Part shown: one piece after another, positions 3,144 to 60,765 of the stretch
Position numbering within the stretch: position 1 is the first letter of the stretch
Layout: the number at the start of each line of letters is the position of its first letter
Origin: Escherichia phage Ec_YwIITB1
Strand: one strand, 5' to 3'
Length of the DNA stretch: 64,000 nucleotides
Sequence record: PQ356294.1
Notes under the pieces: generated by a model
What the model saw: the letters and a program-made list of their open reading frames with translations, nothing else
Told to the model about the DNA's origin: nothing
Databases searched by the model: none
Translations under genes and position numbers: made by a program

Positions 3144-3240
3144 AGTAAGCGTTTAATACATCAATCATTAAAACGATTGGGAATATACTCAAAACTACTA
3201 GTATTATAACTACATTCCATATAGCTTTAACAATCTTTTT
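3130..3240 (-). CDS. hypothetical small membrane protein (36 aa); track ORF 3130..3378 is over-extended
   Basis: ATG (MKKIVKAIWNVVIILVVLSIFPIV...) sits just downstream of an early promoter module and GGAGG SD; the upstream part of the track ORF is translated promoter sequence. Confidence 0.4.
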   Translation of the reverse strand, partial: KKIVKAIWNVVIILVVLSIFPIVLMIDVLNAYFGFM

Positions 3241-3270
3241 CATTTTCTGTTCCTCCGTAGTTGATAGTTG

Positions 3271-3301
3271 TATAGTACCACAGAGGAACAGTCTTGTAAA
3301 C
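3271..3301 (-). promoter_or_regulatory. T4-type early promoter module (-35 GTTTAC, -10 TACTAT)
   Basis: Minus-strand GTTTACaagactgttcctctgtggTACTATAC followed by GGAGG SD; module repeated at 54857 and elsewhere. Confidence 0.6.
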
Positions 3302-3486
3302 AACTTTTTTAAAAATATTCGTAATAAATGTGAATACCAACTACTACCGCTGAAACTTGCGCAACCCACCATGCACAAGCAATAAGTACAGAATTCAAAA
3401 TTTTCATAATAACCTCATTACAAAAGTAAATGTTAAACAAATTAGTGGAATACTAATTAACCAAATAAAACACCACCATAATGAAC

Positions 3487-4643: not shown

Positions 4644-4662
4644 AATTTCCCTTAAAACAAAA

Positions 4663-4676
4663 AGGGCCGAAGCCCT
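4663..4676 (-). terminator. UUCG-loop hairpin with U-run
   Basis: Minus-strand GGGCUUCGGCCC followed by UUUUUGUUUU. Confidence 0.5.
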
Positions 4677-4870
4677 TATTTAAATTGTGCAATTCTTTTT
4701 TCTAAACAATCTGCATAAGATTTCATTGAGATGAGCTGCGAAAGCATCAGTTCTTGCTCAACTTCATTAACTGATAGAAACTTTGTGCTTTCTAAAAATT
4801 TGCTCAGTGCATTAATTTTGAGCATTAATTGATCGTATTCTTCTTTTACTCGTGCTTGATAACCTAACAT
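4676..4870 (-). CDS. hypothetical protein (64 aa)
   Basis: ORF with AAGGAAAA SD directly downstream of rIIB and a UUCG hairpin. Confidence 0.5.
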   Translation of the reverse strand: MLGYQARVKEEYDQLMLKINALSKFLESTKFLSVNEVEQELMLSQLISMKSYADCLEKRIAQFK

Positions 4871-4884
4871 AATTTTCCTTAGTT

Positions 4885-4900
4885 AAGGGCCGAAGCCCTT
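4885..4900 (-). terminator. UUCG-loop RNA hairpin immediately 3' of rIIB (structural; weak terminator)
   Basis: GGGCUUCGGCCC directly after the rIIB stop; no strong U-run. Confidence 0.4.
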
Positions 4901-5837
4901 ATTTAAATTGTTCAGTAACGTCTTCAACTACTTCGTATTGGCAGGTACGCATTTTAGCATCGTTGTAATCAATCGGAATTGATACTACATCACGCGGATG
5001 CACTTTAACTTTTACAACTCGACTGGTTGAACTGCCAAAGTGACGAATATAAGATTTAGAACACACATGCAGACCACGAGAACAAGTTTGTGTATCATCG
5101 TCATTCACGCGAGTACGTGGCATTTTAACTACTTTACCGGGACTGTTGTCAAAAGTATTTGAATGGCAGTCAAAGTAATTGCTGCGAACTACTTTCCAAG
5201 CATAGAAGTAGCCATCTTCTGTAATTTCAATATCGTTTGCTACCAAGAAATCAAAGAGTCGAGATACCGCTTTTTGGCTTGGGTTTTCCAACAGATTTTC
5301 CAAGAACGGAAAATAAAATTCAAAGTTTTCGCCTTTTTCCATCGAATCGAGAATACGATCAACTAAACCAGACCGCAATTCAATATTTTGATAGAACAAG
5401 CTTCCACCTTCAATTCGAACATCACCGGAAATATATTTTTCAACAGCACGACGAACGTTAATTTTTTGCGCCGCTTCTTCCAATTTATCTGCAACAAGCA
5501 GATTAAGAATTTCCTGGAAGTTTGAATGAGTATTAGGAGTTGCGTTATAAGTTACACCGTCAACAGTAATTGAAATGAATTTTTTAGATGCATTCCAAAT
5601 AATGTCAGATTTAGCAACTGGAGCAATAACTGCATCGCTATTAACTTTAACTGTAATATCACCGCTAATAGTAACTTTGGGACGTTTAGCTTCTTCAGCA
5701 TTTTTCAAAACACGACGGATTGTGTCAACCGATACACCTTGCCAATCAGCCAATTCCTGCTGGGTATAATTGCCGCTTGAATACAGTTTGACGATTTCAG
5801 CTTGTTCGTTTTTGGTCAGGCATTTAATATTGTACAT
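4899..5837 (-). CDS. rIIB: rIIB protein
   Basis: 312-aa ORF (T4 rIIB length) immediately downstream of rIIA; N-terminus MYNIKCLTKNEQAEIVKLYSSGNYTQQELA. Confidence 0.9.
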   Translation of the reverse strand: MYNIKCLTKNEQAEIVKLYSSGNYTQQELADWQGVSVDTIRRVLKNAEEAKRPKVTISGDITVKVNSDAVIAPVAKSDIIWNASKKFISITVDGVTYNATPNTHSNFQEILNLLVADKLEEAAQKINVRRAVEKYISGDVRIEGGSLFYQNIELRSGLVDRILDSMEKGENFEFYFPFLENLLENPSQKAVSRLFDFLVANDIEITEDGYFYAWKVVRSNYFDCHSNTFDNSPGKVVKMPRTRVNDDDTQTCSRGLHVCSKSYIRHFGSSTSRVVKVKVHPRDVVSIPIDYNDAKMRTCQYEVVEDVTEQFK

Positions 5838-14868: not shown

Positions 14869-15100
14869 ATTTAATTAGTAATTTACAGACACTTTCATCT
14901 AGCGTAATTACCGTATCTATATTACTGTGATATGATTGTTTTTCAATTCGTTTAATTGCTAGTATAGTATCACTTATAAGATTAAGCTTATAAAGGAGCT
15001 CAGCTCCTGTTACCATAACACTGAGGTTATCTTGCTTATCAGTGTGCTTCTTTATACCATCTATTAGACGATTTAAATATTTTGAATTGATGTTAATCAT
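14840..15100 (-). CDS. hypothetical protein (86 aa)
   Basis: Minus-strand ORF between the dexA cluster and dda. Confidence 0.5.
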   Translation of the reverse strand: MININSKYLNRLIDGIKKHTDKQDNLSVMVTGAELLYKLNLISDTILAIKRIEKQSYHSNIDTVITLDESVCKLLIKFEEAIRGNN

Positions 15101-20379: not shown

Positions 20380-20714
20380 TCACAAGATGTAGATGAACAA
20401 CTAAAATCACAAGAACTTCCACACGAATCACCCGTCCACACATGAACAGGAACATTAGTATCATATGAATCAGAACTAGACTGTGTATTCTGCGTATTAG
20501 ATGATGTAGGTGTTGACCAACGCCAAGGATTTTTATAATATTCTTGGGCTTCTTCATAAGTCATAGTAACTGCTTCTACTGTTCCATCTCCCATATAAAC
20601 ATATTCAACTACAGTTAAAGAAAGGTAGTCATTTGAAATAGGAACTACACCTTCTCCGGGAGTCGTAGAGAAAAAATCCGTAAAGAAACTTTTAAACCAA
20701 TTAAAGATAAACAT
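20376..20714 (-). CDS. hypothetical protein with Cys/Ser-rich C-terminus (112 aa)
   Basis: ORF ending ...[18 protein letters not shown]. Confidence 0.5.
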
Positions 20715-20926
20715 TACAAAAAGCCTCTTTGAAATTCGACTCTTTGAAATCCACCCCAGTCAGTGTATCGCATTTCAGCATTGAACTCGACTGAACCATC
20801 TGCATGCATCATGAATGAATGCGTGACGATATCACAATCCCAGCTTTTCATACCCCATTTATCAGAGATAGCTTTATCAAGAACCTTCTGGAGGTCTTCA
20901 TTTGGTTTAATCCAGCGATTTAACAT
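20714..20926 (-). CDS. hypothetical protein (70 aa)
   Basis: First ORF downstream of the early promoter at about 20953..20983. Confidence 0.5.
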   Translation of the reverse strand: MLNRWIKPNEDLQKVLDKAISDKWGMKSWDCDIVTHSFMMHADGSVEFNAEMRYTDWGGFQRVEFQRGFL

Positions 20927-20952
20927 AGTGCTCTCCTCTATAAGATAATTTT

Positions 20953-20983
20953 ATTATACCATACTCATTTTGGAAAGTAAACC
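20953..20983 (-). promoter_or_regulatory. early promoter
   Basis: Minus-strand GTTTACtttccaaaatgagtatggTATAAT. Confidence 0.6.
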
Positions 20984-20998
20984 GGTAAAATGAAAAAA

Positions 20999-21016
20999 GG
21001 ACTCCCGAAGGAGTCC
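20999..21016 (-). terminator. intrinsic terminator downstream of soc
   Basis: GGACUCCUUCGGGAGUCC followed by UUUUUU. Confidence 0.7.
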
Positions 21017-21027
21017 TTGAATTATTA

Positions 21028-21264
21028 ACCACCTATTTCTGTAGGCGTAAACATTGCAGCATTCTTAGTTTTCCAATCAGCTGCATCAGAAACTACGGTA
21101 GAATATGCTGCCTTTTCAGAAGGAAAGATTTGATAATGAGAATCTGCGATACGATGCTCGTTAGAATAAATTTCAAACGGAACAGAAACTTCCATACCTT
21201 TAACTTCTTTGCCTTCACCTGCTGGATGAGTAAAGGTCTTGATGTTAACGAAACCACCATAATA
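21028..21264 (-). pseudogene. soc: soc (small outer capsid protein) with start codon out of frame
   Basis: Frame encodes Soc-like ...GGFVNIKTF...HYQIFPSEKAAYSTV...AAMFTPTEIGG but lacks an in-frame start; the SD-proximal ATG at 21260 is offset by one base after a G-run. Confidence 0.6.
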
Positions 21265-21302
21265 AACTCCTTTATTGTTTAATTACAGGTGTATTTATAT
21301 CA

Positions 21303-32846: not shown

Positions 32847-32864
32847 AAGGGGCCGAAGCCCCTT
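32847..32864 (-). terminator. hairpin downstream of regA
   Basis: GGGGCUUCGGCCCC followed by UUAUUU. Confidence 0.55.
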
Positions 32865-34792: not shown

Positions 34793-34808
34793 AAGGGCCG
34801 AAGCCCTT
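34793..34808 (-). terminator. UUCG hairpin between genes 45 and 44
   Basis: AAGGGCUUCGGCCCUU directly after the gene 45 stop. Confidence 0.45.
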
Positions 34809-43140: not shown

Positions 43141-43156
43141 AAGGGCCGAAGCCCTT
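43141..43156 (-). terminator. UUCG hairpin with U-run
   Basis: GGGCUUCGGCCC followed by UUUUUGG. Confidence 0.5.
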
Positions 43157-44748: not shown

Positions 44749-45219
44749 TTAATCATGTTTCCACACCCCATCGGTATTTGACCAAAGTCGCTGATTATCT
44801 GATCCTCGCCACAGCTTTTTGGTCGGAAGATTTTTCTCATACTTCCCATCAATAATAACATCAACATATTTAAGCATTTCTAGTTGTTTAATATCCTCAA
44901 ATTTATATCCTGTCCACAACCAAATGCTTTTATTTGGATAAAGATTTTTTACTGTTTGAACAATGCAATGAATAACATCTCTATTATCAGGATAGAGGGG
45001 GTCTCCCCCAGTTATAGTCAATCCTTCTGTATAATCATTATTCAAACATTCAATTAATTGTTCTAGTGTTTCACCGGTGAATGGAACACCATTTCTAGCG
45101 TTCCATGTTGATTTATTATAACACCCTTCGCATTTATGCAAACAACCTGTAACGAAAAGAACGACCCTGCATCCAGGGCCATTCACAAAATCGCAAGGAT
45201 AAAATCTATCATAATTCAT
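44749..45219 (-). CDS. nrdG: anaerobic ribonucleotide reductase activase NrdG (radical SAM)
   Basis: 156-aa ORF with CxxxCxxC cluster motif (CLHKCEGC). Confidence 0.9.
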   Translation of the reverse strand: MNYDRFYPCDFVNGPGCRVVLFVTGCLHKCEGCYNKSTWNARNGVPFTGETLEQLIECLNNDYTEGLTITGGDPLYPDNRDVIHCIVQTVKNLYPNKSIWLWTGYKFEDIKQLEMLKYVDVIIDGKYEKNLPTKKLWRGSDNQRLWSNTDGVWKHD

Positions 45220-54301: not shown

Positions 54302-54829
54302 TTATGCGAGTACCGTCTTTAACCGTTCTTCAAACTTCCGAAGAGTATTTTGGCGTTCAGCTCTTTGCTTTTTGTAAGTTTCAATACGCTCTGAAATGAG
54401 AGTGTATCGTTCATTTACCGATTCTTTCATAAAATCAGGAATTTCACGAGAAGCTTTAATCTCGTCAAATTTATCAATAACAGCTTGCTCTTCAGCAATT
54501 AAATTATCATACATTAAAATATCTTTCTTGATGAACTCAATATCTTCTTGAGTTACACGAGATAATTTAGATGCTTTATCCTTTTTGTACTGTTTATTAG
54601 TATCACGAGACCAGTGCAATGTACGATTTTTATTCGTATTTTTGTAAATTTCTACAATACCGATCTCATCAATAATAACGATCCAATTCCAACGGGATTT
54701 GTAAATTTGTCCTCCATCAACAGTGATTTCACCTCCGATTGAGATGTCGTTAAAGAACTTGCTTTGTGCTTCAGATTTAAATTTACCATCGTTGTAATTT
54801 ACCAAGTTGAAAATATCTTTAGCGTTCAT
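54302..54829 (-). CDS. hypothetical protein (175 aa)
   Basis: First gene downstream of the early promoter at about 54857..54887. Confidence 0.55.
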   Translation of the reverse strand: MNAKDIFNLVNYNDGKFKSEAQSKFFNDISIGGEITVDGGQIYKSRWNWIVIIDEIGIVEIYKNTNKNRTLHWSRDTNKQYKKDKASKLSRVTQEDIEFIKKDILMYDNLIAEEQAVIDKFDEIKASREIPDFMKESVNERYTLISERIETYKKQRAERQNTLRKFEERLKTVLA

Positions 54830-54856
54830 TTTGTGTTCCTCCGTAGTTGATAGTTG

Positions 54857-54887
54857 TATAGTACCACAGAGGAACAGTCTTGTAAAC
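54857..54887 (-). promoter_or_regulatory. early promoter module
   Basis: Near-identical copy of the 3271..3301 module. Confidence 0.6.
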
Positions 54888-54889
54888 CA

Positions 54890-55204
54890 CTAAAAGAAAC
54901 TTCTTTCACAATTTTTTCCACTGAACCATGCACTTACCGCTTTCTTGGTCTCAGGAGCAGTGTTATCCATAAACCATTCAAAGGCAGCCTTTTTATGATT
55001 CTGGAGGGCTTCTCGGGCTTTAATCTGCTCACGGTCTATTAACACTAGCATGTGAGCCTTTCTTGTCACCATGGGCTTCTTATGATTTTTTGAATACTCC
55101 CAGTCATTTGTCCATCGCATTGTTGTTGCGAACTGAAATACTGCTTCTTTAATTTTAGTTTCGTAAATTTCACGAGCCTTTGAGTATAACATCATTACCT
55201 CCAT
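54890..55204 (-). CDS. hypothetical protein (104 aa)
   Basis: Minus-strand ORF. Confidence 0.5.
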   Translation of the reverse strand: MEVMMLYSKAREIYETKIKEAVFQFATTMRWTNDWEYSKNHKKPMVTRKAHMLVLIDREQIKAREALQNHKKAAFEWFMDNTAPETKKAVSAWFSGKNCERSFF

Positions 55205-56274: not shown

Positions 56275-56295
56275 ATCCGTATCAGTTGATAGTTG

Positions 56296-56326
56296 TATAG
56301 TACAATAAAGCTTTATGCTTGTAAAC
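56296..56326 (-). promoter_or_regulatory. early promoter module upstream of the P-loop ATPase gene
   Basis: Minus-strand GTTTAC...TACTATAC and GGGGA SD. Confidence 0.55.
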
Positions 56327-56356
56327 CGTTTTGCGAAAAATTTTTAAAATAAAAAA

Positions 56357-56374
56357 GGGAGCCCGAAGGCTCCC
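56357..56374 (-). terminator. intrinsic terminator downstream of the nucleotidyltransferase-like gene
   Basis: GGGAGCCUUCGGGCUCCC followed by UUUUUUAUUUU. Confidence 0.7.
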
Positions 56375-56376
56375 TA

Positions 56377-60131: not shown

Positions 60132-60280
60132 GCCATATGAGTTGCAGCTTCATCACACATATCATAACGTTTCTTAAGAAGTTCTACAAGTTCTTCACTA
60201 GTAACTTCATCCATGTCGACGAAAAAATCACCATTAATGATGACGTAGATATTTCCTTCTTGATTGAGTGCTTCAATTTT
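60095..60280 (-). CDS. hypothetical small protein (61 aa); start re-set
   Basis: ATG at 60280 ([10 protein letters not shown]...) after GAGGAGA SD; track start lies in the promoter. Confidence 0.45.
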
Positions 60281-60310
60281 CATGATGTTCTCCTCTTTAT
60301 CCGATGGTTG

Positions 60311-60341
60311 TATAGTATCACAGCTCAAATTGAAAGTAAAC
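60311..60341 (-). promoter_or_regulatory. early promoter
   Basis: Minus-strand GTTTAC...TACTATAC then GAGGAGA SD. Confidence 0.55.
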
Positions 60342-60356
60342 CGGTAAAATGAAAAA

Positions 60357-60374
60357 AGTCTCCCGAAGGAGACT
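60357..60374 (-). terminator. intrinsic terminator downstream of the rI operon
   Basis: AGUCUCCUUCGGGAGACU followed by UUUUUU. Confidence 0.7.
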
Positions 60375-60378
60375 AATG

Positions 60379-60765
60379 TTATTCGAGTGAAAGAAGATAT
60401 TTGCTCTGGTAAAACATCCCAGTGATATCATCTATCGTGCTTTGAATGGCTGGAGGCATTTCTTTATAAATGCTGTTAGATTGATCTAGTATGTGATCAA
60501 TCATTTTAATTGTATCGGTAGGAAGTTTACTGGCGTCTGGAATAGAAGGCGTGTATTTTCTACCAGAATACCCTAAATATTGCTCACCAAATTTATCAAT
60601 CAAATCTGGCAATTCAGAGAAAATAAAATCGTATGCTTTGTGTCTAGCATAACTTTTAGTTTCAAAATGTGCAGAATGAAAATAAGCTTGTGCAGCCATT
60701 AATAAACCTAAGTATTCATCTGCCTTTGAAGGTTTTCCACTTTGTGAAAAGTCGCTGAATTTCAT
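60379..60765 (-). CDS. rI.-1: rI.-1-like protein
   Basis: 128-aa ORF immediately downstream of rI. Confidence 0.55.

Follow-up and report, generated by a model that had tools for sequence, protein, structure and literature searches.

Organization of the two junctions

The stretch of DNA analysed here, referred to as the window, comprises 64,000 nt of Escherichia phage Ec_YwIITB1 (PQ356294.1), and all coordinates are positions within it. The segments around the two sites described below, A and B, were 90-99% identical to several hundred Tequatrovirus (T4-like) genomes, and the window is assigned by this similarity to a Tequatrovirus, a T4-like phage. Gene identities at both sites were taken from T4, from ime09 and from protein searches. 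Site A corresponds to the soc/mrh.2 junction and site B, 39 kb apart from it, to the rI.-1/mobD.5 junction, with essential genes on the flanks; Mrh.2 and MobD.5 were identified by protein homology, and the gene names at site B come from ime09 and T4. A literature search for mobD.5 and mrh.2 returned no relevant papers. All the genes in the neighbourhood of both sites are on the minus strand, so the reverse complement of the repeat is the relevant reading.

On the transcribed strand the same order of elements was found at both sites: stop codon, C(UUCG)G hairpin, T6, CATTTTACCG, GTTTACT, 17 nt, an extended -10 element (TGnTATAAT or TGnTACTAT at the two sites), Shine-Dalgarno sequence and ATG. 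The hairpin starts 6-8 nt past the stop codon (6-nt spacer at site A, 4-nt at site B), and the cassettes as a whole directly follow the stop codon and precede the Shine-Dalgarno/ATG by 27-29 nt.

At site A (minus strand), the TAA stop codon of soc (21027-21025, end of the ORF 21025..21195) and the 6-nt spacer occupy 21019..21027. The predicted terminator hairpin, AAGGACUCC-UUCG-GGAGUCCUU, spans 20997..21018 with its loop at 21009-21006, and was recognised by folding, by a terminator scan, by its identity with T4 and by orthologue covariation. It is followed at 20983..20998 by T6 (20998-20993) and CATTTTACCG (20992-20983), which would form the terminator U-tract and also correspond to about -52 to -37 of the promoter. 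The putative early promoter core found by the promoter scans (20953..20982) consists of GTTTACT (20982-20976), the 17-nt spacer and TGgTATAAT (20961-20953). The Shine-Dalgarno sequence GGAG (from 20936) and the ATG of mrh.2 (20926-20924) lie within 20914..20936, as assigned from the mrh.2 ORF (20714..20926, minus strand) and from Mrh.2 homology.

At site B, also on the minus strand, the rI.-1 stop codon TAA (60381-60379, end of the ORF 60379..60765) and its 4-nt spacer occupy 60375..60381. The predicted terminator hairpin AGUCUCC-UUCG-GGAGACU (60357..60374, 7 bp, loop 60367-60364) was supported by folding, by a terminator scan and by the annotation of the DalCa record. T6 (60357-60352, the first T being the last base of the stem) and CATTTTACCG (60351-60342) cover 60342..60357, and the candidate early promoter core at 60312..60341 is made up of GTTTACT (60341-60335), the 17-nt spacer and TGaTACTAT (60320-60312), with a score of 13 in the T4-style scan and the TG present. 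The Shine-Dalgarno sequence GAGGAG and the mobD.5 ATG (60283-60281) are found at 60271..60295. The promoter core of this site is conserved in T4, ime09 and the IMG/VR relatives.

When folded as RNA, both hairpins were stable, with -15.1 kcal/mol (z -4.9) for the 9-bp stem of site A, in which ggactcc/ggagtcc is extended by AA/TT, and -10.8 kcal/mol (z -3.6) for the 7-bp stem of site B (agtctcc/ggagact). The stems quoted in an earlier note made from the sequence alone were present as written, with pairing preserved in both. Directly 3' of the stem, both sites carry a U-rich tract, T6 followed by C-A-T4. In the generic scans, the minus strand gave a terminator at both sites and, at site A, also a promoter; the T4-style promoter scan (GTTTAC-N17-TAnnnT) gave 13/13 for each of the two sites. 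The weaker features are those of site B, with its modest 7-bp stem and its non-consensus -10 sequence, TACTAT. A scan of the whole window against Rfam at gathering thresholds returned no family, which places the hairpins outside every curated RNA family.

A bidirectional terminator was also considered. On the plus strand the stem is followed by GAATTATT at site A or AATGTTAT at site B, and the match of the plus-strand scan had no real T tract. This possibility was rejected because a plus-strand T tract is lacking and the minus strand carries all the genes here.

The T4 late-promoter motif TATAAATA was found just upstream of soc (21292-21299, minus strand), and the SA20RB record gives this motif as a late promoter. 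Therefore, soc would be a late unit located inside an early region and bounded by the site A terminator. At the start of soc (21251-21260, minus strand) the window has ATGGTGGTTTC compared to ATGGGTGGTT(T/A) in nine relatives with the same soc allele. As one G of the run is missing, the frame is shifted at codon 2, and a 56-aa C-terminal ORF (21025-21195, minus strand) is all that remains in frame; this corresponds either to a homopolymer sequencing error or to a natural soc-null phage.

The repeat shared by the two sites

An exact 27-mer, CTTTTTTCATTTTACCGGTTTACTTTC (minus strand), is present at 20973-20999 and 60332-60358. No third match was found in the window with up to 3 mismatches allowed, and 0 matches were expected from 100 shuffles. 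When the hairpin core was included, the two copies aligned over 41 nt with 95% identity. The duplication of the segment plus hairpin reported in the earlier note at 20971..21016 and 60331..60376 was found at those places; these 46-nt ranges include 4 extra bases to the left of copy A and 2 to the right of copy B, as copy B is 1 nt shorter. Alignment on the loops leaves two pairs that differ between the stems, each with both sides changed (A-U to U-A and G-C to A-U), and the stem of site A has two additional A-U pairs compared to that of site B.

The loop had been described as CGAA, which holds for the plus strand only; in the transcript it reads UUCG closed by a C-G pair. The claim that a terminator is placed back-to-back with the -35 region of an early promoter agrees with the arrangement found, in which the hairpin and T6 are followed by GTTTACT, the 17-nt spacer and a TGn-extended -10, as predicted at both sites.

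Spacing between hairpin and promoter

The distance from the end of the GC stem to the G at -36 is 16 nt at both sites, which places the T tract at about -52 to -47. The same 16-nt spacing was found in RB69, in Bp7, in an IMG/VR relative and in two out of three site B sequences from Gaprivervirus, the exceptions being PSD2001 (15 nt), JS09 (19 nt) and site A of DK-13, which is devoid of GTTTAC. In two other T4 cassettes the stem-to-(-36) spacing is 28-29 nt.

The region upstream of the promoter core also sets both sites apart. The other 19 promoter-like sites of the window share an A-rich stretch at -54 to -50, a T-rich one at -49 to -46, a C at -45 and a second A-rich stretch at -44 to -40. 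Instead, TTTTTTCA is found at sites A and B; it is one position off the T-rich/CA motif of the other 19, and the A tracts are missing. The A-rich UP-like region (about -40 to -44, and further upstream) was absent from A and B, where TTTTA is found at -44 to -40; positions -59 to -47 are occupied by T tract or stem, although the region is still A/T-rich. As the typical A-rich stretches are missing, the strength of these two promoters may differ from that of the canonical T4 early promoters.

This arrangement suggests a dual use of the T tract, which is probably the U-tract of the terminator and at the same time a part of the A/T-rich region upstream of the promoter, the dual use being a weaker inference than the terminator and the promoter themselves. 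The consensus of the E. coli UP element includes TWTTTT at -52 to -47. One might go further and regard A and B as a distinct, compact subclass of the PeSL elements discussed below, in which the U-tract is part of the T-rich upstream element and the cassettes are built from separately exchangeable sub-modules, a proposal that we put forward as tentative.

An exact repeat of this kind could also be produced without common descent, if a standard terminator and a standard early promoter had been placed together independently at each junction, and the 27-nt identity reflected functional constraint only. Both the U-tract and GGTTTACTTTC are indeed constrained, and the middle part shared by the two copies can vary, as T4 has CATTTAAATGG at site A, not CATTTTACCGG, and Gaprivervirus has CATTTAGGGGG at site B. 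Nevertheless, A and B are identical at -46 to -37, unlike the consensus of the other 19 sites (TTTT versus AAAA at -44 to -41), chance does not predict an exact 27-mer, and the 16-nt spacing is found at both sites and in most of the orthologues from other genera, compared to the 28-29 nt of the two other T4 cassettes. Independent origin is consequently an improbable explanation, and the two copies are better considered as paralogues.

Hairpins at orthologous junctions

The same two hairpins were found in T4 at the same two junctions, which are carried by about 500-870 related phage genomes. Searches of IMG/VR seeded with the proteins yielded 7 loci for Mrh.2 and 5 for MobD.5, mostly near-identical, and the junctions of other genera were retrieved by Mrh.2 and MobD.5 homology. 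No covariation was detected within Tequatrovirus, where the hairpins are invariant at each site in nine IMG/VR loci, T4 and ime09. Therefore, the evidence of covariation comes from the paralogues and from the other genera alone.

At the soc/mrh.2 junction, the arms of the hairpin are AAGGACUCC and GGAGUCCUU in Tequatrovirus, AAGGAAUCC and GGAUUCCUU in Mosigvirus (RB69, JS09), AAGGAACC and GGUUCCUU in Dhakavirus (Bp7), and AGGGAACC and GGUUCCCU in Gaprivervirus (DK-13), whereas at rI.-1/mobD.5 those of Gaprivervirus are AAAAGGUCUGCC and GGUGGACCUUUU. The C(UUCG)G loop and the T tract that follows are kept in these junctions from four genera, and the stems differ. In the covariation set, which consists of six distinct hairpins only, from the four genera, and has its register fixed by the invariant loop, 6 of the 9 pairs were changed on both sides and 92.6% of the cells were paired. 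The covariation score was 0.74 compared to 0.22 +/- 0.07 in shuffled sets, none of which (0/500) reached 0.74, and pairing in the same six hairpins was 30-63% when the register was slid. This covariation among orthologues supports selection on the RNA helix. The earlier note had drawn the same conclusion from the two copies of the window, which as paralogues are thin evidence for it, and the claim holds with the orthologous junctions of the other genera.

In the whole genome of T4, 21 CUUCGG hairpins with a stem of at least 5 bp were found, 19 of them on the minus strand. The remaining two directly follow genes 23 and 37, whose transcription is on the plus strand, so in 21/21 cases the hairpin is on the strand of the adjacent annotated genes. 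As a DNA palindrome has no reason to keep UUCG over CGAA in the sense strand, this orientation argues for a role at the RNA level.

Two of the junctions retrieved from other phages depart from this arrangement. In Shigella phage JK45, the soc/mrh.2 junction has the stem of RB69 with an inverted loop, CGAA in the sense strand. It was not retained as a trait of the clade, as the related Mosigvirus APCEc01 and AV115 have the normal UUCG, and from this comparison the JK45 loop appears as an isolated variant or an assembly quirk. At the soc/mrh.2 junction of DK-13 (Gaprivervirus), the T tract of the hairpin runs into TTTTGCTTTT-N11-TATAAT, which looks like a middle promoter with a MotA box and not like a GTTTAC early promoter; it resembles the 'PmSL' variant of Comeau et al. 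2014 (PMC4122927).

Hairpins and promoters in the rest of the window

Both components of the cassettes are abundant in the window. The minus strand has 21 early-promoter-like sites (GTTTAC-N17-TAnnnT), compared to 2 for the plus strand, and many of these sites fall into families according to the repeat finder. The sequence CTTCGG was found 36 times compared to 12.8 expected, and CUUCGG hairpins of at least 6 bp were present 12 times on the minus strand and once on the plus strand. The pair formed by sites A and B is one instance of these two abundant classes.

The search for further copies that the earlier note had proposed had a double outcome: there is no other copy of the 27-mer in the window, but a third cassette of the same kind was found by the hairpin and promoter scans at 56290..56375 on the minus strand. 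It consists of a hairpin, AGGGAGCC-UUCG-GGCUCCCU (-16.2 kcal/mol), followed by T5, a 29-nt A/T-rich gap and GTTTACA, so that the predicted terminator and the upstream region of the promoter do not overlap. Its counterpart in T4 is located at 55433-55414, just after nrdC.11.

Other repeats and hairpins of these classes were also observed. The early-promoter regions at 3239-3305 and 54825-54891 are 97% identical over 67 nt, from the -35 through the -10, Shine-Dalgarno sequence and start codon, which makes a longer and closer repeat than that of sites A and B, and the same output shows further promoter families. A hairpin AAGGGC-UUCG-GCCCUU (AAGGGCTTCGGCCCTT) is reused between genes at 4662-4677, 34793-34808 and 43141-43156, with relatives at 4884-4901 (the same core with one pair more) and 32847-32864 (AAGGGGCTTCGGCCCCTT). 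The presence of this hairpin at several intergenic sites indicates that terminator hairpins make up repeat families in their own right. A hairpin without UUCG, GGCCCUGGAUGCAGGGUC followed by GTTCTTTTCG, was found at about 45150-45185 (minus strand). The 50-nt upstream stretch folded with -19.2 kcal/mol, and the promoter-like site downstream of the hairpin has GTTTGCA and a spacer of 16 nt; this may be another terminator/promoter junction.

Stable CUUCGG hairpins without a T tract were found on the minus strand at 26247-26228, 4901-4884 and 2003-1988, an example being UCCCCCUC-UUCG-GAGGGGGA followed by AGAAGAAAG. Such hairpins presumably do not act as terminators and may be mRNA-stability or translational elements. 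These hairpins indicate that CUUCGG hairpins have other uses in this genome, and the bypass hairpin of T4 gene 60 is a further use of CUUCGG. It could then be asked if those of sites A and B act mainly as mRNA stabilisers or processing barriers against exonucleases, not as terminators. In contrast to the T-tract-free hairpins, those of A and B are directly followed by T6-C-A-T4, a T tract is present in every orthologue examined from the four genera, and annotations based on TransTerm, WebGeSTer and MFOLD call terminators. A mainly stabilising role is therefore quite unlikely, even more so than an independent origin of the two copies, and intrinsic termination is the preferred reading of the hairpins.

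Divergence around the cassettes

Identity with T4 was 88-97% over the cassette of site A (about 21028-20890), an island of roughly 95%, compared to about 60% in soc and 35-60% in most of mrh.2. No such contrast between island and flanks was seen at site B; each comparison involved one genome pair. The Mrh.2 protein of the window is 57% identical to that of T4, compared to 97-100% to those of RB51, HP3, EC121 and others. Therefore, two sharply distinct mrh.2 alleles circulate in Tequatrovirus behind a near-identical cassette.

T4 contains four hairpin-plus-early-promoter cassettes. The hairpin and T tract of site A recur there as an exact 25-nt match at the 30.9/30.8 junction (NC_000866, 130335-130360), where the early promoter of gene 30.8 follows at a different spacing, and Tequatrovirus records mostly have 3 matching places. 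The hairpin of site A is then that of T4 30.9/30.8, and the promoter-proximal half of site A is that of site B. This separate sharing of the hairpin half and the promoter half hints at exchange inside cassettes, beyond exchange between cassettes. Gene conversion from B to A, considered as the source of TTTTACCGG at site A (where T4 has TTAAATGG), was rejected as unnecessary because distant orthologues of site A have TTTTACTGG and TTTTAAGGG; the state of site A in the window is probably close to the ancestral one.

The conserved island between diverged genes, the low identity of the Mrh.2 proteins of the window and T4, and the exact recurrence of the hairpin in a different promoter arrangement would all be expected if the main function were at the DNA level, with the element acting as a recombination site (through PeSL module shuffling, or as a cruciform or protein target) and transcription control being secondary. 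The recombination and mini-circles documented for the PeSLs of RB49/phi1 point in the same direction. Against such a main role, the strand that carries UUCG would not matter to a DNA element, and yet it is in the mRNA sense in 21/21 hairpins of T4 and 12/13 of the window, and the T tract is on the sense 3' side only. We consider a primarily DNA-level function doubtful, with a better chance than the two alternatives weighed above. The DNA-level and transcriptional roles are compatible, and recombination is better seen as an added consequence of a transcriptional cassette than as a rival to it.

Relation to described elements

Cassettes of this composition have been described in T4-like phages as PeSLs (promoter-early stem-loops), composite terminator/early-promoter elements for which both promoter and terminator activities were detected by reporter assays in RB49/phi1, and whose modular recombination was proposed and partly shown in the same phages (Arbiol et al. 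2010, PMC2839356; Comeau et al. 2014, PMC4122927). The promoter consensus published for the PST/T4 pair reads TTTACW-N17-TAYWAT, and both A and B fit it. As in the PeSLs, a stem-loop is located directly upstream of a sigma-70-type early promoter, Shine-Dalgarno sequence and ATG within one short intergenic gap, and copies are repeated, here as two near-identical ones plus the third cassette of the window. The site A island between diverged alleles would fit the conserved-linker pattern expected of PeSLs, for the one genome pair compared, in which site B shows no such contrast. In contrast, the T tract of A and B overlaps the upstream region of the promoter at the 16-nt spacing, compared to 28-29 nt in other T4 cassettes. 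Excision of a mini-circle between A and B is not expected, given the 39 kb that separate them and the essential genes on their flanks.

Annotations equivalent to ours already exist. In RB69, TransTerm predicted the terminator 'mrh.2<--soc' at 14953-14970 with a confidence of 100, directly abutted by the early promoter Pe:14950 (14900-14950) (Nolan et al. 2006, PMC1524935). A rho-independent terminator and a T4 early promoter are annotated at site A in the GenBank record of SA20RB, terminators in that of Kha5h, and a rho-independent terminator at site B in the DalCa record.

The individual parts are also known. The hairpins share the GC-rich stem, the short loop and a U tract that begins at the stem base with the intrinsic terminators of E. 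coli, from which they show no material difference. The original paper on the C(UUCG)G tetraloop hairpins of T4 mRNA is reportedly that of Tuerk et al. in 1988. CUUCGG hairpins were first recognised in T4 mRNA (PMC4371310), and those of A and B do not differ materially from them, with the same UUCG loop closed by C-G, in intercistronic position and in the mRNA sense. The early promoters of T4 are of the UP/-35/TGn/-10 type with GTTTAC at -36 to -31 (Hinton 2010, PMC2988021), and A and B share with them GTTTAC, the 17-bp spacer, the TGn, the -10 and the location upstream of early genes (PMC2988021; PMC1524935). They differ upstream of the core: where these promoters usually have A-rich sequence, at -54 to -50 and at -44 to -40, the two sites carry hairpin arm, T tract and TTTTA instead.

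The element is thus an ordinary, previously described and already annotated terminator/early-promoter cassette of the PeSL type of T4-like phages. The interpretation given in the earlier note is supported, but it is not new.

Proposed function

The data are best explained if each copy is a composite cassette on the minus strand, in which an intrinsic terminator is followed by an early promoter within a short intergenic gap, and if both copies are paralogues of the PeSL family; we assign to this reading a probability of about 0.87. The steps of termination and initiation outlined below follow the established knowledge of intrinsic termination and of sigma-70 promoters. The literature search returned no map of T4 transcript 3' ends.

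RNA polymerase coming from soc (site A) or rI.-1 (site B) would transcribe the GC-rich hairpin with its very stable C(UUCG)G tetraloop. As the hairpin followed by the U6 tract has the anatomy of an intrinsic, Rho-independent terminator, most transcripts would be expected to end in the T tract, and the hairpin may also protect the new 3' end. The T4 early promoter would begin 16 nt past the GC stem, with the G at -36, TTTACT as the -35, a 17-bp spacer, TGn, and TATAAT or TACTAT, and it would be used by the host sigma-70 RNA polymerase immediately after infection. Initiation about 7 nt after the -10 hexamer would produce a new early transcript containing mrh.2 or mobD.5 and the genes after it. 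In this way, the cassette would insulate neighbouring transcription units, and site A in particular would keep soc, a late gene, apart from the early cluster mrh.2/mrh/srh/mod. The two copies, as paralogous members of a repeated PeSL family, may also provide patches of homology at which the genomes of T4-like phages recombine.

Significance

The finding marks two boundaries between transcription units in a T4-like genome, one of which would isolate the late gene soc from an early cluster. It also provides a clean example of covariation in an RNA hairpin. Beyond annotation, the finding as a whole is of little import. The fixed architecture of the 16-nt overlap and the hints of exchange of cassette parts are mildly useful additions, which could be taken up in a study, at population scale, of where Tequatrovirus genomes have recombination breakpoints.
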